The notes under the pieces were generated by a model. It had not been told where the DNA came from and searched no databases. It saw only the letters and a list, made by a program, of their open reading frames with translations. A stretch of DNA of 64,000 bases. It comes from Candidatus Methanomethylicia archaeon. GTDB taxonomy: Archaea > Thermoproteota > Methanomethylicia > Culexarchaeales > Culexarchaeaceae. The stretch's first letter is position 1; every line of letters starts with the position of its first letter. Shown in pieces: positions 2,499-64,000 of the stretch. The stretch lies in the NCBI GenBank assembly GCA_038727515.1, contig JAVYVS010000004.1, forward strand, positions 1 through 64,000, given 5' to 3'. The translations under genes were made by a program, and so were the position numbers.

Positions 2499-4325
2499 AT
2501 GTGTGGGATAATTGGGTTTATTGGGATGGGTGATATTGCAAATAAAATTGTTTTAGAAGGTTTGAAGAGACTTGAATATAGGGGTTATGATTCTGTTGGT
2601 ATAGCAATGATATGTAGTGATAATCGTTTAGTGGTGAAGAAGGATGCTGGGAAGATTGATGAAGTACATTTAAAACTGAATTTCCTAGAGCCTAAATCAA
2701 ACCTCATAATTGGACATGTACGATGGGCTACTCATGGTGCGCCAACCATGGAGAATGCTCATCCACACGTGGATTGTAGTGGTGGTATAGCTGTTGTTCA
2801 TAATGGTGTTATTGAGAATTTCCTCGAGTTGAAGAGGGAGCTTGAAGATAAAGGTCATAGATTTAGGTCTAGAACTGATACTGAAGTTATTCCACATTTA
2901 ATTGAGGATGAGATTAAAGCTGGTAGAAGTCTATATGAAGCTGTTCTTCACACTGTTAGGAAGCTTAAAGGATCTTATGCTATTGCAGTTATCTCAACAT
3001 TTGAACCTGATAAAATTATTTGTGCTAGAAATGAGAGTCCATTAATCATTGGTTTTAGTGATAATGCATTTTACTGTGCATCTGATATACCTGCAATACT
3101 CCCATATACAAGGGTTTTTTCATCTATGGATAATGGTGAAATAGCAATATTAACGGTTAATGGCGTGGAATTTAAGAGTATTTCCAATGGTGAATCAATT
3201 TCTAAAAAGACTTTTAGTGTGGATTGGAGTATTGAGTTGGCTGAGAAGCAGGGTTATCCACATTTCATGTTGAAGGAGATTCATGAGCAACCTTTAAGTC
3301 TTAGGAATGCCCTTAGACTTCAAGAACAATATCTAGATTTACTGGCTAGATTTATTGATCGTGGTGAAAGGGTATTTCTAGTAGCTTGTGGAACATCATA
3401 TCATGCTTGTCTTGCAGCTTCATATATGTTTTCAAAGATAGCTAAAGTTGCAGCTTTTCCAGTTATAGCATCAGAATTCCTTGAGCAGTATGGTGAAGCC
3501 ATTGGAATTGATGATGTAATGCTTGCTGTAAGTCAATCTGGGGAAACATATGATGTTTTGAAGGCTGTAGATCATGCACGTATGAAGGCTGCAACAATAC
3601 TTGGATTAACAAATACCGTAGGTTCAACTTTAACCAGAGTTTCAAGAGCGTATATAGTTCAACAATCAGGTCCAGAAATTGGGGTTGCAGCCACTAAAAC
3701 CTTTACAGCGCAATTGCTTGTTTTAGCTCAATTGGCAATGAAAGTAGCAAATTTAAGGGGTAAACTTTCACAACAAGAATCAGACTTCTTAAGGGATAAT
3801 TTAAGGAAGATGCCAGATGTTATCAGTGAAGTTTTAAATTCATGTGAAGAGAAAATTAAAAAACTAGCTAAAATCTACGCTAAAAAGAACTTATTCCTAT
3901 TTCTAGGTAGAGGTATAAATGTTGCAACTGCATTGGAAGGTAGATTAAAACTATTAGAAATAACATACATACCATCATTAGCCTTTAGTGCAGCTGAATC
4001 AAAACATGGTCCTATAAGTATAATTGAAAGTGGTATTCCAGTAATATTCATAGCACCAAGAGATTCAACTAGAAAGGATATTATTGGTAATATTATGGAA
4101 ATGAAAGCTAGAGGTGCTGAAACTATAATCCTATGTGAAGAGGGAGATAAAGAATTAATTGAATTGGCAAATCATCATATACCAATGCCAAAGGGTATAC
4201 CTGAAATCTTAACACCCATCCCATACATAATACCACTACAATTATTGGCTTACTATATATCTGTGGAAAGAGGTTTAGATCCAGATAAACCTAGGAATCT
4301 AGCTAAAAGTGTAACTGTTCCATAA
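2499..4325 (+). CDS. glmS: Glutamine--fructose-6-phosphate aminotransferase (isomerizing)
   Basis: MCGIIG N-terminus, RLEYRGYDS, GHVRWATHG, HNGVIEN, SQSGET, VAATKTF, KHGP, PRNLAKSVTV. Confidence 0.97.
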   Translation: MCGIIGFIGMGDIANKIVLEGLKRLEYRGYDSVGIAMICSDNRLVVKKDAGKIDEVHLKLNFLEPKSNLIIGHVRWATHGAPTMENAHPHVDCSGGIAVVHNGVIENFLELKRELEDKGHRFRSRTDTEVIPHLIEDEIKAGRSLYEAVLHTVRKLKGSYAIAVISTFEPDKIICARNESPLIIGFSDNAFYCASDIPAILPYTRVFSSMDNGEIAILTVNGVEFKSISNGESISKKTFSVDWSIELAEKQGYPHFMLKEIHEQPLSLRNALRLQEQYLDLLARFIDRGERVFLVACGTSYHACLAASYMFSKIAKVAAFPVIASEFLEQYGEAIGIDDVMLAVSQSGETYDVLKAVDHARMKAATILGLTNTVGSTLTRVSRAYIVQQSGPEIGVAATKTFTAQLLVLAQLAMKVANLRGKLSQQESDFLRDNLRKMPDVISEVLNSCEEKIKKLAKIYAKKNLFLFLGRGINVATALEGRLKLLEITYIPSLAFSAAESKHGPISIIESGIPVIFIAPRDSTRKDIIGNIMEMKARGAETIILCEEGDKELIELANHHIPMPKGIPEILTPIPYIIPLQLLAYYISVERGLDPDKPRNLAKSVTVP

Positions 4326-50635: not shown

Positions 50636-50715
50636 GTTTCATCTAGAATTTCAGATATTCAAATTTAATTAATAAGTGAGGATTTATATGTGAATGATAA
50701 TTGAATATTTATGGT

Positions 50716-51467
50716 ATGACCTTTGAAACTCTTTCAAGAGAAGAGAAGTTGAGAATATTGAAAGCTTTAGAAGAAGATTTAGAGTTTAGGTATGCAGTGG
50801 CAGGTTTAATTGGGATCTCCGAAATATTAAGGAGATTAGATAGATTTGAAGAAGGACAAAATAAATTATGGGAAAACCAAAAAAGGTTATGGGAAGCTCA
50901 AAACAAATTATGGGAAAATCAAAACAAACTGTGGGAGGAGGTTAAAAGTCTAAGAGAAGGCCAGAATAAACTATGGGAGGAAATCAAAAACCTAAGAGAA
51001 GGCCAAAATAAGCTGTGGGAAGAGGTTAGAGAACTGAGGGTTAATTATAGGATATTGGAAAAGAGTTTAAATGCTTTAAGAGAGTCCATGATAAGTGGTT
51101 TTAGTGAGTTAAGTAAATTTGCAGGTTTAACCTTTGAAGAATTTGTTAGAAAATTCTTAACTAACTATTTAAGAAGCATGGGGGTTATATCAGAGAATGT
51201 TGAATTTAAACCCATAAATATAGATGGAGAGGAAATAAACATATTCCTTGAAGACCCCTCATAGTTGGAGAAGTAACATCTTATAGTGAAAGTCTACAAG
51301 AATTTGAGAAACTTATTAGAAAGATTGAGATTATTAAACAGAAGTATAAGAGGGAGCCTAAGAAATACCTCATAATATTAACGGTTAAAGAAGATGTGGT
51401 TGATGTCCTTAGGAAATCCTGTGAAGAAATGGATATAGAGCTTATTATAGGTAAAGTGGTAAAGTAA
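50716..51467 (+). pseudogene. Coiled-coil repeat + nuclease-like (DUF3782-type) gene with one frameshift
   Basis: LEEDLEFRYAVAGLIG, QNKLWE heptads. One extra C in the run at 51255-51258 restores ...EDPLIVGEVTSY...IELIIGKVVK*. Confidence 0.75.
50857..51030 (+). repeat. Degenerate 21/42-bp tandem repeats encoding QNKLWE heptads
   Basis: Six units of consensus CAAAAYAARYTRTGGGA. Confidence 0.85.
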
Positions 51468-51563: not shown

Positions 51564-52211
51564 TTGTGTGTGAATTCAAGTGGAATTGAATCAGTTCTTA
51601 ATTCAATACCTTCATATAGCTTTGAACTTGGATTAAACCTTAAATCTAAGGATGATAGGTTTAAATGGTTTATTGCTTCAATACTATTTGCCAAGAGGAT
51701 CTCATCAAAGATAGCTTCAAAAACATTTAGAGTGTTTGTTGAGAGGGGTTTAACAACTCCAAGAGCTATTCTAAATGCTGGATGGAACTCTATTGTTGAA
51801 GTTTTAGATGAAGGTGGATATGTTAGATATGATTTTTCAACAGCTACAAACATCATTGAGAATATGAAGATCTTAATGGAAAAGTATCATGGGGATATAG
51901 ATAGCATTCATGAATATGCTTCTGATGAAAGGGATTTGGAAGCTAGATTAATGGAGTTTAGAGGTTTTGGACCTGTAGCTATAAACATTTTCCTTAGGGA
52001 ACTTAGAGATATTTGGAGTAAAGCTAAACCAAAACCTTCAAAGTATGCTGTGAACGTCGCTTTAAAGGTGGGTTTAAATCAAGATCTACTTGAAAGATAT
52101 GAATCTCAGCTTGTTAGGGTATTTATTGAGTATTGTAAAAGGGGGTTTTGCGATAAATGTCCATTGAGTAAGTATTGTAGTAGTAAGAGTGTAAATCCAT
52201 TTAAACCTTAA
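51564..52211 (+). CDS. HhH-GPD superfamily DNA glycosylase-like protein with a C-terminal 4-Cys cluster
   Basis: GGYVRYD, HhH motif LMEFRGFGPVAINIFLRE, and CKRGFCDKCPLSKYC. Confidence 0.7.
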   Translation: MCVNSSGIESVLNSIPSYSFELGLNLKSKDDRFKWFIASILFAKRISSKIASKTFRVFVERGLTTPRAILNAGWNSIVEVLDEGGYVRYDFSTATNIIENMKILMEKYHGDIDSIHEYASDERDLEARLMEFRGFGPVAINIFLRELRDIWSKAKPKPSKYAVNVALKVGLNQDLLERYESQLVRVFIEYCKRGFCDKCPLSKYCSSKSVNPFKP

Positions 52212-57174: not shown

Positions 57175-58371
57175 TTACGGTAATATTATCTTACCCATTA
57201 CAACTCTTTCTAATGCTCCAGTGGCTGAAGGAACATTATTTGGAAATCCACTTATAGTTTCATTTGCCAGTATGATCATTACAAGTGGTTCTTTTGCTTG
57301 TGATGGTATTCCATAATCTTCATGTAAGCTAATCTTTGTTTTTGGATTTAATTCTTTAATCATCTCCATTAAAACTCTATTTCTACTTCCACCTCCACCA
57401 ATTATGATTTCATCTGGTTTTTCCGGTAGGTATTTAATGTAGCTTTCAGTTATGGTTTTCGCCGTATAATATGTTGCTGTTGCAATTATATCTTCCCATT
57501 TCAAATTCATTTCTCTAGCTTTTCCAATAATCTTCTTAACATATGATTCTCCAAATTCTTCTCTACCGGTGGTTTTTGGAGGTTTCTTCTTTAGATATGG
57601 ATGTTTCATCATGTAATTCAGCAATACCTCATTCACTTTCCCCTTTGCTGCTATTTCTCCATTTAAATCCATGTTGAGTTTTCCATGACTCATCTCTCTA
57701 ACTATTGCATCTATTATCATGTTTCCAGGTCCTGTATCGAAGGCTATTACATCCTTTATCTCTGCATTCCTTGGTATATATGTTACATTGGCTATTCCAC
57801 CAATATTTTGAATAGCTCTACAAATATCTATGCTTCTAAATATTATGTAATCTGCATATGCACTTATTGGTGCTCCATTACCACCTGCAGCTACATCTTT
57901 ATGTCTGAAATCAGCTATGGTAATGATCTTTGTTTTATAAGCTATTATTGATGGTTCTCCTATTTGTAGTGTTGATCTAGTTTTATACCCATATATATCT
58001 TCAATCTTTGGATTATGGTATATGGTCTGCCCATGACTTGCTATAAAATCCACATCCCCCCTACTTAAACCAACTTCATCCATTGCTTCCAAAGCTTTCT
58101 CTGCAAATATCATTCCTAAAACATAATTTAATTGGCATATCCTCTTTACATTTCCAGTTTTTGGATTTGTTGATTTCAATATTAATCTACGAATTTCATT
58201 ATCATATTCAAATGTCTTATGGTATAGTATTTTGAATTTTGTATTTATCCAATTACCCTTTAATTTAGCTATTACTATTGATACTCCATCTAATGATGTT
58301 CCAGACATTATTCCTAAACCTATCTTTTCCTCCTTTGATTTCAATTCAAATAATTTCTCTATGGGGTTCAA
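57175..58371 (-). CDS. anmK: Anhydro-N-acetylmuramic acid kinase
   Basis: GIMSGTSLDG, SHGQTIYH, DFRHKDVAAGGNGAP, NIGGIAN, FDTGPGN, KTTGRE, GGGSRN, AKE. Confidence 0.95.
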   Translation of the reverse strand: MNPIEKLFELKSKEEKIGLGIMSGTSLDGVSIVIAKLKGNWINTKFKILYHKTFEYDNEIRRLILKSTNPKTGNVKRICQLNYVLGMIFAEKALEAMDEVGLSRGDVDFIASHGQTIYHNPKIEDIYGYKTRSTLQIGEPSIIAYKTKIITIADFRHKDVAAGGNGAPISAYADYIIFRSIDICRAIQNIGGIANVTYIPRNAEIKDVIAFDTGPGNMIIDAIVREMSHGKLNMDLNGEIAAKGKVNEVLLNYMMKHPYLKKKPPKTTGREEFGESYVKKIIGKAREMNLKWEDIIATATYYTAKTITESYIKYLPEKPDEIIIGGGGSRNRVLMEMIKELNPKTKISLHEDYGIPSQAKEPLVMIILANETISGFPNNVPSATGALERVVMGKIILP

Positions 58372-58423
58372 TTTATCTTCAATTCACTACTTATCTCACT
58401 TTACATTTAATCCTTCCCTAAAT

Positions 58424-58774
58424 TTATTCTACTTTTACTTCTCTTCCAATCTTTTTCTTTCGTAATTCTATGGTTAGTAATCCTTCAAAATACTTTGCTT
58501 TTGCACTTTCTGGTTCTACTGGATCTTCCAATTTAATCTTATACTTATACTCTTCTTTTCTCCCTACTATTTCAACTGATGTTTTAGCTGATATGCTTAT
58601 TGCATTCTCATTTACATATAGTTTTATATCTTCCTTCTTTACCCCTGGAAGTTCTACTGTCACTATATATTTATCATCTTCCTCTTTTATCTGATATCTT
58701 TCTGATATTACTCCGTGTTTATATGCTTTCATCTTTATTATTGGTAGTGGTATGTTTAATCCTCCAATTATCAT
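58424..58774 (-). CDS. Hsp20/alpha-crystallin family protein
   Basis: VELPGVKKEDI, AKYFEGLLTI. The start is uncertain (58774 or 58822). Confidence 0.85.
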   Translation of the reverse strand: MIIGGLNIPLPIIKMKAYKHGVISERYQIKEEDDKYIVTVELPGVKKEDIKLYVNENAISISAKTSVEIVGRKEEYKYKIKLEDPVEPESAKAKYFEGLLTIELRKKKIGREVKVE

Positions 58775-58867
58775 TTTAATTTCCTTTTCCACTTTTCTAT
58801 TATCGTTACACATTTGTACCACAATTAAATTTTAGTCTATTTTTGTATTTAAATTTTATTTTTGTAC

Positions 58868-59320
58868 TTATTCTATGGAAACTTTCCTCCAACCTTTAAG
58901 TTTCTCTTCCACTATCTTCATTTCTCCCTCTAGGAATTTCTTATATTCTTCTAGTTCTTCTACATCTTCTAGTTCTCTTGCTATGCTCATGTATTTCTCT
59001 GCTTCTCTAATTGATTTCTCCATTATGAATGATATATATTTCATTATTGATTTTATTTTTGGCTGTATTAGTTTTGGTATTTTATCTATTGCTTCAAATC
59101 CCTTATCAGTTAATTTTACACTACCATCAATTTCAAATTCTATATATCCCTTATCTCTAAGTTCTGAGAGTGATGTGTAGAAAGAGCTTTTTGATTCCAA
59201 TCCAAATTCATACATTTCTCTAAGTAGTTTTGCAGTCTTCTTTCCTCCACTTTTAAGTTTTAGTAGTATTGCTATTTGATGTGGATTTAATTTATCTTCT
59301 CCTACTTTAATTTTAAACAT
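58868..59320 (-). CDS. Winged-helix (MarR/PadR-like) protein with a coiled-coil tail
   Basis: QIAILLKL..KSSFYTSLSELRDKGYI..VKLTDKG. Confidence 0.75.
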   Translation of the reverse strand: MFKIKVGEDKLNPHQIAILLKLKSGGKKTAKLLREMYEFGLESKSSFYTSLSELRDKGYIEFEIDGSVKLTDKGFEAIDKIPKLIQPKIKSIMKYISFIMEKSIREAEKYMSIARELEDVEELEEYKKFLEGEMKIVEEKLKGWRKVSIE

Positions 59321-59326
59321 TCTTCT

Positions 59327-60043
59327 TCACTCTACTGTAAAGTATATTCTCCTTTTATCTTTCCCCTTATTTTGAACTTTTATCAATTTTACTTCTCCTA
59401 CTTCCATGGTATTCTTTACATGTGGTCCACCATCTGCTTGTACATCTAATCCCTCTATTTCCACTATTCTAAGTTCTTCTAATTCTGGTGGCATTCTTTC
59501 AGCTAATTTTACTATTCCAGGTATTTTTAATGCTTCCTCTCTTTTTAGGAAGTATATTTTTACTGGTAGTGCCATTTTAACTGCTTCATTAACTTTTCGA
59601 ATAGCATCTTCAAATATCTCTTTACTCATTGATGGTATATTAAAATCCATTTTCGCTTCATCTTCATCCACTTGTCCACCTGTTACAAGAGCATTATAAT
59701 GATTATACATTACTGCTACTAGTATGTGTGCTGCAGTATGTAGTCTCATTAATCTATATCTTCTCTCCCAATTTATTTCACCCTCCACTTCAATTCCAAT
59801 TTCAACTTTTGGTTCTATGTTTAATACATGTATTATATCTGCAGTGGTATGATCTAATTTTACATCTTGAACTTCATATTCTAATCCCATTATCCTAATT
59901 TTGCCAGTATCATTGGCTACTCCTCCAGTTTGTGGATGGAATATTGTTTGATCTAAAATCAATTCTCTACCATTACAGGCGAGAACTTTAGCTTTAAAAG
60001 TTTTTTGATAACTATCGTATTGATATAAGTGTTTTGTTGGCAT
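59327..60043 (-). CDS. alaXM: AlaX-M trans-editing protein
   Basis: LDQTIFHPQTGG, RLHTAAH, QADGGPHV. The start MPTKHLY follows GGTGA. Confidence 0.9.
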   Translation of the reverse strand: MPTKHLYQYDSYQKTFKAKVLACNGRELILDQTIFHPQTGGVANDTGKIRIMGLEYEVQDVKLDHTTADIIHVLNIEPKVEIGIEVEGEINWERRYRLMRLHTAAHILVAVMYNHYNALVTGGQVDEDEAKMDFNIPSMSKEIFEDAIRKVNEAVKMALPVKIYFLKREEALKIPGIVKLAERMPPELEELRIVEIEGLDVQADGGPHVKNTMEVGEVKLIKVQNKGKDKRRIYFTVE

Positions 60044-60140
60044 TTTAATCACCATTAAATCTTCTATACATGTTTTTAAGGGTTTCCATAATACCATAAA
60101 TTTTTAGGTGTATTTATTAAATATTTGTTGGTGTTTAACT

Positions 60141-61688
60141 TTGGATTTGGATTTATTGGCTGGTCAAATGATTATGATGGGTTTTGATGGTTTAGAGCTT
60201 AATTCTGAAATTATGGATGCTTTAAAGAGGATTAAACCTTGTGGTTTAGTCTTTTTCAGAAGGAATATGGCTAATTGGAATCAAGTTAAGAAGCTTATAA
60301 GAGATTTACAAAATTATGCTTCTAGCATTGGACTTCCACCATTAATTATTGCTTTAGATCATGAGGGTGGACCAGTATTTAGGATGGCTAGTCGTTTAAC
60401 CCCTCTTCCCAGCGCTATGGCTTTAGGTGCATCCAATGATCCATCTATGGTTGATTGTATAGCTAGAATTGCAGGTCAAGAACTTAAAGCTTTAGGATTT
60501 AATTTGAATTTTGCTCCTGTAGCTGATCTCAATACTAATCCAAGGAATCCAGTTATAGGTATTAGATCTTTCGGGGATGATCCATTTAAAGTTGCTAATA
60601 TGGTTTCCAGATATGTTTCATCTCTTCAATCTACTGGTGTTATGGCTACTGCTAAACATTTTCCAGGTCATGGTGATACATCTGTAGATTCCCATTTAGA
60701 TCTTCCTATTGTAGATGTTGATTTAAATGTTTTATTGAATAGAGAGCTTATACCATTTAAAGCTGCTATTGATGCTGGTGTTTCATGTATAATGACTTCC
60801 CATGTATGTTTCCCAAGGGTTGATTCTTCGAATCTTCCAGCAACATTCTCTAAATATCTCTTAAGGGATGTTTTAAGGGGTATGCTTGGTTTTAATGGTG
60901 TAATAATTTCTGATGCTCTTGAAATGAAGGCTATTAGCAGTAGATTTGATGTTGATGATGTAGCTCTTTATGGTTTAAATGCTGGTTTAAATATTCTACT
61001 TAGGGGTGGAGATTTAAATTATATTTTTGATTTAAAGGATTCAATTTTAAAACTCGTTAAGAGTGGAGGGGTAGATCCAAAACTATTATATGATTCCTAT
61101 ATTAGGATTGAAGCCCTTAGGAATAAGATTAATTCTTATTCATCTCCCATTGAAGTTTCAATTAAAAATTTGAGGAAGAATAGAATGCTTTCCATGGATG
61201 TTTCTCTATCCTCCATAACCATTTTGAAAAGTGATTTATTTAGACCATTAAAGGGTTATAATTCTATTGCCATCCTCATTCCAAGGATGCTTCAACGTTT
61301 CTTATCTAATTTTAGTTCTGAAGTTGTCAATTTATTTGTTGGTGAATTTGGGAGTTACATTGATACTTTGGTTATATCATTTTATGATGAAGATGTAAAC
61401 TTTGATGATTTAATGGATATTGTTTATAATGTGGATGGTGTTGTCTTCTTCACTTATAATGCAATTTTCCATAGGTTTCAATTGGATTTATATGAGAAGA
61501 TTAAAGATAGGGTTTTAATGGTTGTTGCAGCAGGTTCACCTTATGATGCTGAATTAATTGATGGAGATAAACCTATAGCTTTAACCTATGGATTAAATCC
61601 AATAGTCTTATCTGCTCTTGTAGATGTTTTATGTGGTGTTTGTGAAGCTCATGGTATTCTTCCAGTTAAATTGAATTTGAAAAGCTAG
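60141..61688 (+). CDS. nagZ: GH3 beta-N-acetylhexosaminidase (two-domain)
   Basis: DHEGG, APVAD, IRSFG, the NagZ signature KHFPGHGDTSVDSH and nucleophile ISDALEM. TTG start at 60141 preferred. Confidence 0.93.
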   Translation: MDLDLLAGQMIMMGFDGLELNSEIMDALKRIKPCGLVFFRRNMANWNQVKKLIRDLQNYASSIGLPPLIIALDHEGGPVFRMASRLTPLPSAMALGASNDPSMVDCIARIAGQELKALGFNLNFAPVADLNTNPRNPVIGIRSFGDDPFKVANMVSRYVSSLQSTGVMATAKHFPGHGDTSVDSHLDLPIVDVDLNVLLNRELIPFKAAIDAGVSCIMTSHVCFPRVDSSNLPATFSKYLLRDVLRGMLGFNGVIISDALEMKAISSRFDVDDVALYGLNAGLNILLRGGDLNYIFDLKDSILKLVKSGGVDPKLLYDSYIRIEALRNKINSYSSPIEVSIKNLRKNRMLSMDVSLSSITILKSDLFRPLKGYNSIAILIPRMLQRFLSNFSSEVVNLFVGEFGSYIDTLVISFYDEDVNFDDLMDIVYNVDGVVFFTYNAIFHRFQLDLYEKIKDRVLMVVAAGSPYDAELIDGDKPIALTYGLNPIVLSALVDVLCGVCEAHGILPVKLNLKS

Positions 61689-62836
61689 TATATGTGGTAT
61701 TTTTCCTTTTCATAAGCATATTTCAATAATTCTTCTTCTACTTCATCTACTATTGCCCATGGGTCTTCATCTTCATCTATTGATCTTCTAATTTTACTTG
61801 TTCCCGTTAAGATATCCATCCAATATTTCCCCTTAACCTTCCTCCATTGGAATTTCTCTGGGTATAGTCTTTTTATTGTACTTATTATTTGTAGTCCAGT
61901 TAGGAATGGTCTGAATAATCCCCTATCCATCACATATATTTCTACTCCTCCACATAATTTCCCTCTATATTTACCGCTATTTGGTTTGAATGTTAATGGT
62001 CTAAATTTAACTCCACTTAATCCAGTTTTATTTAGTTCTTCTGATAGTTTCTTTGGTTTTATCCATGGTGCTCCAATTACTTGGAATGGTTTTGTAGTTC
62101 CCCTCCCCTCAGATATGTTTGTAGCTTCAATTAAACATGTTCCAATGTATACATGTGCTGTTTCTGGTGTTGGCATATTTGGTGATGGTGGAATCCATGG
62201 TAATCCAGTTTGATCAAACCATAAGCTTCTACTCCAACCCTCCATGGATACAACTCTTAAATCAGCTTTTAAATGGTATTTCTCATTTAGATATGTAGCT
62301 ATTTCCCCTATGGTTAATCCATATCTAACTGGTATTTCAGCTATTCCAACGAAAGATCTATATTCTCCCTCTAGTATTGGTCCCTCTAATATTTCTCCTG
62401 TTATTGGGTTTGGTCTATCTAATACTATAATTTTCAATTCATTTTCTCCACATGCTTCTAAACAGTAGTAGAGGGTTGAGATATATGTATACCATCTTGC
62501 ACCTACATCTTGTAAATCAAATACTAGTGCTTCTAAATCCTCCATATCTTCTCTTCTTGGTTTATAGTTTAATCCATATAGGCTTTTTATTTCAACTTTA
62601 TACTCTTCGTCATAATATGATGTGGTTATAGGTTTTGTTTCTGTAATTGTAAATCCATGTTCAGGGGTGAATACCCTTTTAACTTGGCATTTCCCAATTC
62701 TCCTTGCTTCATCTATTATATGTGTGAATTGTGGAGTTACACTTGATTGATTTGCCACTATCCCTATACTTCTACCTCTTAAATCTCCAAAATCTTCTTC
62801 TATTAATATTTCCAATCCAATTTTCACTCTATCCAA
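61685..62836 (-). CDS. namZ: Exo-beta-N-acetylmuramidase (DUF1343/GH171)
   Basis: PEHG, SLYG, FDLQDVGARWYTY, LDRPNP, PSPNMP, SEGRGTTKPF. Confidence 0.93.
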   Translation of the reverse strand: MDRVKIGLEILIEEDFGDLRGRSIGIVANQSSVTPQFTHIIDEARRIGKCQVKRVFTPEHGFTITETKPITTSYYDEEYKVEIKSLYGLNYKPRREDMEDLEALVFDLQDVGARWYTYISTLYYCLEACGENELKIIVLDRPNPITGEILEGPILEGEYRSFVGIAEIPVRYGLTIGEIATYLNEKYHLKADLRVVSMEGWSRSLWFDQTGLPWIPPSPNMPTPETAHVYIGTCLIEATNISEGRGTTKPFQVIGAPWIKPKKLSEELNKTGLSGVKFRPLTFKPNSGKYRGKLCGGVEIYVMDRGLFRPFLTGLQIISTIKRLYPEKFQWRKVKGKYWMDILTGTSKIRRSIDEDEDPWAIVDEVEEELLKYAYEKEKYHIY

Positions 62837-63770
62837 TTTTCTTCACCTTTGCTATTTCTATAGCTTTTAATGGTATTCCACCAGCTTCTTCCAAGAGTTT
62901 TTCAGCTTCTTCTTTGCTTAAGTTTGTTTTAGCCATTATTATTGCTAATATAACATTACCATTTGCTTCCAATAATTTTTCTTCAGCTTCTTCATATGAT
63001 ACTCCTGCTTCCTCCATTATTATCCTTTTAGCTCTTTCCCTAAGTTTATCGCTTACTGGAGTTAGATTTATCATATGTCCACTTTTTACTCTACCAAGTT
63101 TTATCATAGCTGTAGTACTCATCATTGTTAATATAACCTTTTGTGCTGTTGCTGCCTTCATCCTTGTTGATCCAGTTATAACTTCTGGCCCTGTTTCTGG
63201 TGCTATTACTATATCTGCATATTTTGTTATTTCACCCTTCCGATTACTTGTTATTGCTATTGTTTTTGCACCTATACTTTTTGCATATTTTAATGCTGAT
63301 ATTACGAAGGGTGTTCTTCCACTAGCACTTATACCCACAATTACATCTCCACTTTTAATCCTCCTAGCTTTTAATTCTCTTATTGCTGTTTCTTCATCAT
63401 CTTCAGCTCCTTCTATTGGTCTAAATATTGCTCCAGGTCCTCCTGCAATTATTGCTTCCACAGTTTCTGGTCCAATATTGAAGGTTGGTAGTAGTTCTGC
63501 TGCATCCATTACTGCCAATCTACCGCTTGTTCCAGCTCCAATATATATCATCTTCCCCCCATTGGATATGGCTTCAACTATTAATTCTACTGCTTTACAT
63601 ATATTCTCCAATTCTCTTCCCACAGCTTCCACAGCCTTTTTATCTTCTTCATTTATTATGCGTAGTATCTCTATTGTTGGCATATTCTCTATATCTTGTA
63701 TACCCTTAATTTTTGATTCTGTAGGTGTTTCCTCTAATTCTTTAAATATCTTTAATCTATCTTTATACAT
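62829..63770 (-). CDS. murQ: N-acetylmuramic acid 6-phosphate etherase
   Basis: GAGTSGRL, DAAE..PTF, EGAED, SASGRTP, GPEVITGSTRMKAATAQK. Confidence 0.96.
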   Translation of the reverse strand: MYKDRLKIFKELEETPTESKIKGIQDIENMPTIEILRIINEEDKKAVEAVGRELENICKAVELIVEAISNGGKMIYIGAGTSGRLAVMDAAELLPTFNIGPETVEAIIAGGPGAIFRPIEGAEDDEETAIRELKARRIKSGDVIVGISASGRTPFVISALKYAKSIGAKTIAITSNRKGEITKYADIVIAPETGPEVITGSTRMKAATAQKVILTMMSTTAMIKLGRVKSGHMINLTPVSDKLRERAKRIIMEEAGVSYEEAEEKLLEANGNVILAIIMAKTNLSKEEAEKLLEEAGGIPLKAIEIAKVKKIG

Positions 63771-64000
63771 ATGCCCATTCCTCTATGTTTCTTATGATTT
63801 CATTGTTTATTTCTATTCCCATTTCCCTTAATCCCATTAATATTGTTCCAGCTATCCCTCTATATTTACACTTTACAACTTCTACTTCTGGGTATTCTCC
63901 CTCTAATTCTTTCTTTATCTTTTCCAATAATCTCTTGGATGTTTTAAATAATCCTCCAAAACATTGTACTTCACACTTCCCATATCCACTTTTCCTTATC
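63763..64000 (-). CDS. C-terminus of a BadF/BadG-family sugar kinase (GlcNAc/MurNAc kinase-like); starts beyond the window
   Basis: Manual translation IRKSGYGKCEVQCFGGLFKTSKRLLEKIKKEL...GIAGTILMGL...WAYV*. GGLF and the terminal G-x-x-L helix fit the ASKHA BadF fold; the stop overlaps the murQ start. Confidence 0.55.
   Translation of the reverse strand, partial: IRKSGYGKCEVQCFGGLFKTSKRLLEKIKKELEGEYPEVEVVKCKYRGIAGTILMGLREMGIEINNEIIRNIEEWAYV

Follow-up and report, generated by a model that had tools for sequence, protein, structure and literature searches.

Why should an archaeon carry bacterial-type genes for the salvage of peptidoglycan sugars? The question is raised by the last 7 kb of a 64,000-nucleotide stretch of DNA (the window), which comprises bases 1-64000 of the 116,618-bp contig C4 (JAVYVS010000004.1) from an archaeon of the family Culexarchaeaceae in the order Culexarchaeales (Thermoproteota). 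Its source genome (G000) is a metagenome-assembled genome (MAG) of 1.59 Mb in 12 contigs, 93.6% complete and with 2.9% contamination. The genes in question are anmK, nagZ, namZ, murQ and a kinase gene that runs off the end of the window. Our analyses make it highly probable that they encode a cytoplasmic, vertically inherited Culexarchaeales pathway for the salvage of small pieces of bacterial peptidoglycan.

A first-pass annotation, made from the letters of the window, had reported four intact genes with signature motifs and a putative kinase. All four were recovered in place, above their family cut-offs and with their catalytic residues retained, and the kinase is real. The anmK gene (57175-58371, minus strand) encodes an anhydro-N-acetylmuramic acid kinase of 398 residues that matches PF03702 with 322 bits and passes two AnmK equivalog models, NF007148 (460 bits against a cut-off of 387) and NF007142. 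Its residues D212 and E361 align with Asp182 and Glu326 of the Pseudomonas aeruginosa enzyme (PMC10570956). The nagZ gene (60141-61688, plus strand), read from a TTG start at 60141, specifies a two-domain GH3 beta-N-acetylglucosaminidase of 515 residues (PF00933; PRK05337, 216 bits against 207) with the KHFPGHG-x4-DSH acid/base motif and the nucleophile Asp, as in all 10 Culexarchaeales sequences. On the minus strand, namZ (61685-62836; 380-383 residues) encodes a GH171 exo-beta-N-acetylmuramidase with both the NamZ_N (PF07075, 253 bits) and NamZ_C (PF20732, 182 bits) domains, in which E59 and R245 correspond to Glu92 and Arg279 of the Bacillus subtilis enzyme (PMC8054146). The product of murQ (62829-63770, minus strand), an N-acetylmuramic acid (MurNAc) 6-phosphate etherase of 313 residues, exceeds the cut-offs of PRK05441, PRK12570 and the equivalog TIGR00274 (330.1 against 302 bits). 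Its E92 and E123, which we take to be the two catalytic glutamates, correspond in alignment to positions 89 and 120 in Haemophilus influenzae MurQ (4lzj), and GTSG and SASGRT, presumably the SIS phosphate loop, are present. Finally, positions 63763-64000 (minus strand) hold the 3' end of a gene for a MurK-like, BadF-family kinase of MurNAc and N-acetylglucosamine (GlcNAc), 318 residues long (PF01869), which starts beyond the window at C4:64719. The best Protein Data Bank (PDB) match of this protein is the Clostridium MurNAc/GlcNAc kinase 8zo3 (E 3e-35), and its residues are small at the sites to which PMC10465942 draws attention, although according to that paper sequence alone cannot identify MurNAc binding.

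The kinase gene is the first of a kinase-murQ-namZ run and overlaps murQ by 8 nt, and the 3' end of namZ shares 4 nt with nagZ, which converges on it. Because the kinase gene, murQ and namZ overlap or abut, they probably form a single operon. Of the alignment columns that are at least 90% conserved in bacterial homologues, the five genes keep 56 of 62, 63 of 69, 55 of 56, 45 of 49 and 21 of 25, with dN/dS values of 0.09-0.24 and with native codon use and third-position GC content. In both NagZ and NamZ the catalytic domain stands at the start of the protein, a hydropathy check shows no N-terminal hydrophobic segment or signal peptide, and the two are thus predicted to be cytoplasmic. The five functions assigned here are predictions from family membership and retained residues.

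Bacterial-type genes in a 12-contig MAG with 2.9% contamination could reflect a contaminating or chimeric contig, and the first-pass annotation had proposed checking contig taxonomy and continuity. However, C4 carries archaeal PCNA and aIF2-alpha genes above cut-off (a PriL homologue falls below it), and the same gene order recurs on the 1,584,239-bp contig of GCA_038879675.1, for which the sampling campaign was possibly the same. In three hot-spring studies, contigs span anmK-alaXM-nagZ and alaXM-murQ, and the cluster order is also found in Ca. Culexarchaeum nevadense and sister genera. The nearest homologues are all archaeal, the closest named MurQ being that of Ca. Culexarchaeum nevadense (79%). 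Contamination is effectively excluded. We give almost no credence to this explanation or to its companion, a cryptic murein wall of the archaeon's own, against which the missing synthesis genes described below also argue.

Trees and a co-occurrence survey had likewise been suggested. AnmK was found in 11, NamZ in 10 and NagZ in 10 of 12 Culexarchaeales genomes, and each in none of 50 genomes from other members of the class; full-length MurQ occurs in 10 of the 12 versus none of 29 others. Genomes without these genes are mostly bins of 45% and 57% completeness, and nagZ is also missing from G008 (90%). Among 401 Thermoproteota, MurQ is present in 33, AnmK in 32 and both in 25. The trees were quick, midpoint-rooted and built from loci found through murQ, and we claim no bacterial donor. 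In them, a single branch with SH-aLRT support of 96-99 sets the Culexarchaeales sequences apart on one side for AnmK, for NamZ and for the kinase, with families largely kept together. Order-level support for NagZ is only 62, and MurQ falls in a branch of archaeal sequences within which Thermofilaceae and others are nested. The pattern fits a pathway already present in the Culexarchaeales ancestor, together with exchange among archaea.

The first-pass annotation correctly described archaeal-type genes interleaved with the pathway. Between anmK and nagZ lie hsp20, a helix-turn-helix (HTH) gene and alaXM (58424-60097, minus strand), an archaeal block outside the pathway in which alaXM passes the NF040865 cut-off. 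Genome G007 has a compact anmK-nagZ-namZ-murQ-kinase cluster, and G009 and G010 carry an amiE-like gene where the source genome has hsp20-HTH-alaXM. Genes resembling amiE also occur within the cluster in several other Thermoproteota. Among Thermoproteota the core is usually kinase-murQ-namZ, to which a PIG-L deacetylase, a GNAT protein and an AmiE-like gene are often added. The kinase gene is present at 25 of 28 archaeal murQ loci and nagZ at 4 of 28.

Several variants of this neighbourhood were observed. The anmK-nagZ gap that holds amiE in G009 and G010 is occupied in G011 by a gene for a 584-residue protein (L305:560-2314; 27% to C8:4948-6177). In G003 (L024:2177-5386), an 864-residue gene with an ATP-cone-like start, putatively resembling anaerobic ribonucleotide reductase, and a second open reading frame (ORF) are inserted between anmK and hsp20. 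At other Thermoproteota murQ loci (L187-L204) the PIG-L deacetylase is a separate protein and a GNAT protein of two domains also occurs, and in family f21 kinase-murQ directly follows gapdh-like and pgk genes. One genus in family f30 (G112, G167, G248 and G403, including a single-contig genome) has AnmK without MurQ, and its AnmK is a candidate for acting on another anhydro-sugar.

Where could the substrate come from? Mur ligases were found in none of five genomes searched, and no MurA match exceeded the cut-off in the same five. With no murein synthesis genes found, the substrate must come from outside. Recycling of the archaeon's own wall is unlikely, and to this extent we agree with the first-pass annotation, which had rejected self-recycling. 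Independent support comes from DapF and LysA, which occur above cut-off in 9 and 11 of the 12 Culexarchaeales genomes, respectively, and in none of the 50 others, the same distribution as that of the sugar genes. DapB is present in 1 of 62 genomes, on a small foreign-looking contig of G009. In the source genome, LysC, Asd and DapB gave no tblastn match, LysX fell below its cut-off, and borderline DapA-family matches (208 versus 206 bits) were not accepted as DapA. Because these de novo genes have no match, DapF and LysA would act only on imported diaminopimelate. The orphan pair points to salvage of murein diaminopimelate, and the source cell appears to be without de novo lysine synthesis. In seven genomes a gene for the D-aminopeptidase DppA is adjacent, with lysA after it. 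A Pab87/CubicO peptidase is encoded at C4:68194-69582, 3.5 kb from the kinase gene; its Pyrococcus relative Pab87 cleaves D-Ala off muropeptides (PMC2651629). A search of the source genome for the Ala-Glu epimerase family found no member.

Three further observations concern the lysine genes and their neighbours. A 7.3-kb contig of G009 (C10; L303) carries a complete asd-dapA-dapB-lysC-lysA-dapF-aminotransferase operon whose products are about 36% identical to the LysA and DapF of the order, and which is likely to be bin contamination or a recent gain. An archaea-specific 256-residue protein (C1:236347-237117; L293) is encoded beside lysA in f2 and f3 genomes, and an atlas search gave for it only a zinc-peptidase lead below 0.9. 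Adjoining dapF in the source genome is a module that encodes small membrane proteins, DUF6754 among them (C1:201542-204567; L233), possibly an undescribed transporter; genes similar to one of its members occur about five times in the genome, including those at C1:159427, C1:325975, C1:350898 and C2:271589.

In the amino-sugar branch, the deacetylase NagA (TIGR00221) was found in none of the five genomes. A NagB-PIG-L fusion is encoded at C1:146737-148611 (PRK02122, 596 versus 384 bits) and is common to Culexarchaeaceae and partly to f2. Its PIG-L domain weakly matches diacetylchitobiose deacetylase, and the fusion probably replaces the missing NagA, with the PIG-L domain predicted to deacetylate GlcNAc-6P.

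A pathway can thus be proposed. GlcNAc-MurNAc, MurNAc-GlcNAc, GlcNAc-anhydroMurNAc (anhMurNAc) and free sugars would enter through some transporter, after which NagZ would strip GlcNAc and NamZ would strip MurNAc. The MurK-type kinase is predicted to phosphorylate MurNAc and GlcNAc, AnmK to convert anhMurNAc to MurNAc-6P, and MurQ to cleave MurNAc-6P into GlcNAc-6P and D-lactate. NagB-PIG-L would then probably yield fructose-6P, acetate and ammonia, and D-lactate may be oxidized to pyruvate through a GlcD-like protein at C3:96858. Hexose phosphates would likely supply the ribulose monophosphate (RuMP) pathway and surface-glycan synthesis without phosphofructokinase (PFK). Culexarchaeia lack this enzyme and channel their fructose-6P to the RuMP pathway (10.1101/2022.04.06.487207), and ADP-dependent PFK was also absent. 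With no PFK, biosynthesis is probably at least as important a use of the sugar as energy supply. On the peptide side, DppA and the Pab87/CubicO peptidase, both D-specific, may trim stem peptides, and DapF and LysA would convert imported diaminopimelate to lysine. The most likely substrates are small fragments without peptide, freed by bacterial autolysins and other degraders. Most likely, therefore, a hot-spring archaeon lives partly by collecting small, soluble pieces of wall that bacteria around it release.

Several results weigh against this proposal. No importer was identified: nine major facilitator superfamily proteins gave no AmpG match among NCBIfam models, SBP_bac_5 is absent from the source genome and present in four relatives, and profiles from bacterial murQ neighbours revealed no phosphotransferase system (PTS; MurP) in the source genome. 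No AmiE orthologue was found there either (best match 30%, of the Pab87 type), which leaves the opening of peptide-linked fragments unexplained. The NagB-PIG-L fusion was not found in five f3 (Culexmicrobium-family) genomes. The absences noted here rest on a genome that is 93.6% complete and so are not proven. In addition, the MurQ clade alters usually fixed positions (N to T215, N to G231 and N to S240, with ELLP for ECPP), and the best PDB match of AnmK is a levoglucosan kinase (LGK), which outscores AnmK structures overall. This match and the clade-wide substitutions in MurQ and AnmK might signal a shift to different sugars of the anhydro or lactyl-ether kind, for instance levoglucosan or the carboxyethyl sugars of bacterial polysaccharides, or a MurQ that acts as NagS (GlcNAc-6P dehydratase), for which there is precedent among MurQ relatives (PMC12680351). 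We regard such a shift as quite unlikely. The AnmK sugar-site segments GQTIYH, TLQIG and AAGG are of the type seen in P. aeruginosa AnmK (8bre) and 3cqy, whereas LGK has GQTIWL, ALTMA and AAGR, and at four segments in all AnmK agrees with 8bre and 3cqy against LGK. MurQ passes its equivalog cut-off and nests among bacterial MurQ proteins, NagS is confined to Streptomycetaceae, and five enzymes would need to shift jointly. As a separate observation, an OPT-family protein (C1:491466) was considered as an importer and is a candidate only.

A narrower function is also conceivable, in which NagZ, the kinase and NagB-PIG-L catabolize GlcNAc from chitin oligomers or the cell's own N-glycans and the MurNAc-specific genes are passengers. 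GH3 NagZ enzymes, BadF kinases and PIG-L deacetylases do act on plain GlcNAc as well, and the window holds a large glycosyltransferase cluster at 10-45 kb. However, murQ, namZ and anmK are under equal purifying selection, the archaeal core retains kinase-murQ-namZ while nagZ is the more dispensable gene, and the orphan DapF-LysA pair would be left unexplained, so this account appears improbable. The opposite extension, that the archaeon itself digests the walls of living or dead partner bacteria with unrecognized surface hydrolases, draws on the bacteria-killing peptidoglycan hydrolases that some archaea secrete (PMC12352652), on several exported proteins without a Pfam match and on one membrane-anchored M14 peptidase. 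Yet Amidase_3 and NlpC/P60 were not found in the source genome, a Pfam scan of its exported proteins likewise revealed no wall hydrolase, Amidase_3 occurs in 1 of 12 Culexarchaeales genomes, on a small contig, and the M14 protein resembles carboxypeptidase T/B. In B. subtilis, AmiE is needed with NagZ and NamZ to digest murein (PMC8054146). Given the lack of signal peptides and of AmiE, Amidase_3 and NlpC/P60, the archaeon probably cannot strip intact murein as the secreted B. subtilis NagZ-AmiE-NamZ set does, and direct digestion has little probability. The first-pass annotation had proposed feeding on bacterial wall debris or on partner bacteria; debris holds up as the source, and partner bacteria are unsupported. 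Salvage of small shed fragments is therefore the reading that we retain.

Other features were recorded along C4. A glmS-like gene lies at window positions 2499-4325, and genes for glycosyltransferases, nucleotide-sugar enzymes and large membrane proteins form a long cluster at about 10400-46000, all named by motif only. Together they make up a probable surface-glycosylation locus and a possible sink for salvaged hexosamine. An ORF with heptad repeats (NKLWEE-like) at 50701-51264 is the site to which strain indels and small repeat joints in three metagenomes map. Near position 52200, gene content after an aldo-keto reductase gene differs from that of the 1.58-Mb contig (L242:16271-21197), which continues with a 1045-residue Ig-domain protein and a 1624-residue S8 peptidase rather than the genes at 49-52 kb of the window; this is either a strain rearrangement or an assembly difference. 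Beyond the window, C4:70905-73621 (L001:8906-11622) encodes an HMG-CoA-synthase-like domain fused to DUF35 (zf-ChsH2/OB), beside a thiolase-like gene. Short contigs from one metatranscriptome cover nagZ, namZ and alaXM and were left unused, as contigs cannot show transcription. A sigma-70 promoter scan, unsuited to archaea, performed at chance level.

Bacterial walls are essentially the source of MurNAc and free diaminopimelate, and an order-wide archaeal pathway for them is therefore evidence, at the genome level, of a living made by archaea from bacterial debris. A targeted literature search returned no archaeal description of the pathway, though most subscription papers fell outside that search. 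The Culexarchaeia description never mentions peptidoglycan, the NamZ paper lists only bacteria, and PMC12352652 is silent on MurQ and NagZ and does not settle whether peptidoglycan nourishes archaea. The pathway makes such nutrition testable, suggests MurNAc, disaccharides and diaminopimelate as media supplements for uncultured Culexarchaeales, and offers NagB-PIG-L as a candidate NagA replacement along with thermostable MurQ, AnmK and NamZ. A more tentative proposal, which we hold with rather less than even confidence, is that wall debris has been a standing resource since the last common ancestor of Culexarchaeales, providing hexosamine, carbon and nitrogen, with diaminopimelate as a main lysine source and with undescribed types of transporter and amidase. 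If so, the order would be a cross-domain murein sink in hot springs and vents, and muropeptides would be key to its cultivation.

Comparison with known systems shows how the parts have been recombined. Anhydro-MurNAc recycling in Escherichia coli employs AmpG, NagZ, AmpD, AnmK, MurQ, NagK and NagA. The archaeal route resembles it in the predicted cytoplasmic passage through NagZ, AnmK and MurQ to GlcNAc-6P. However, AmpG and NagA were not found (AmpD was not searched for), NamZ and a BadF-type kinase are extra, and the substrate is foreign. The muropeptide rescue operon of B. subtilis, murQ-murR-murP-amiE-nagZ-namZ (PMC8054146), likewise clusters NagZ, NamZ and MurQ, and the G009 and G010 clusters even include an AmiE-like gene. 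In contrast, B. subtilis secretes its hydrolases and imports sugars by PTS, whereas the archaeon would use cytoplasmic hydrolases and ATP-dependent kinases of the MurK and AnmK types, has no murR in its cluster, yielded no MurP or AmiE, and makes no murein. The kinase shares its BadF fold and presumptive use of imported MurNAc with the MurK enzymes of Clostridium (8zo3) and of Tannerella forsythia (PMC10465942). Tannerella, too, is a scavenger of foreign MurNAc but builds this sugar into its own wall, whereas the archaeon can only catabolize it.

The closest parallel in gene content is eukaryotic: anaerobic APM ciliates have laterally acquired pbp4b, NamZ, anmK, nagB-PIGL, murQ and lysA (PMC13198582). 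This is nearly the same kit, including the NagB-PIG-L fusion and LysA, in a host without murein. Unlike the archaeon, anaerobic ciliates are phagotrophic eukaryotes that ingest bacteria, and for their kit, too, the function is no more than a prediction. The peptidoglycan hydrolases secreted by archaea (PMC12352652) and Pab87/CubicO (PMC2651629) likewise act on bacterial murein or D-peptides, but those reports cover extracellular cleavage and one peptidase rather than intracellular MurNAc catabolism. The Culexarchaeales system is a set of known enzymes in a rearranged, predicted cytoplasmic and foreign-substrate form, in a domain that makes no murein.

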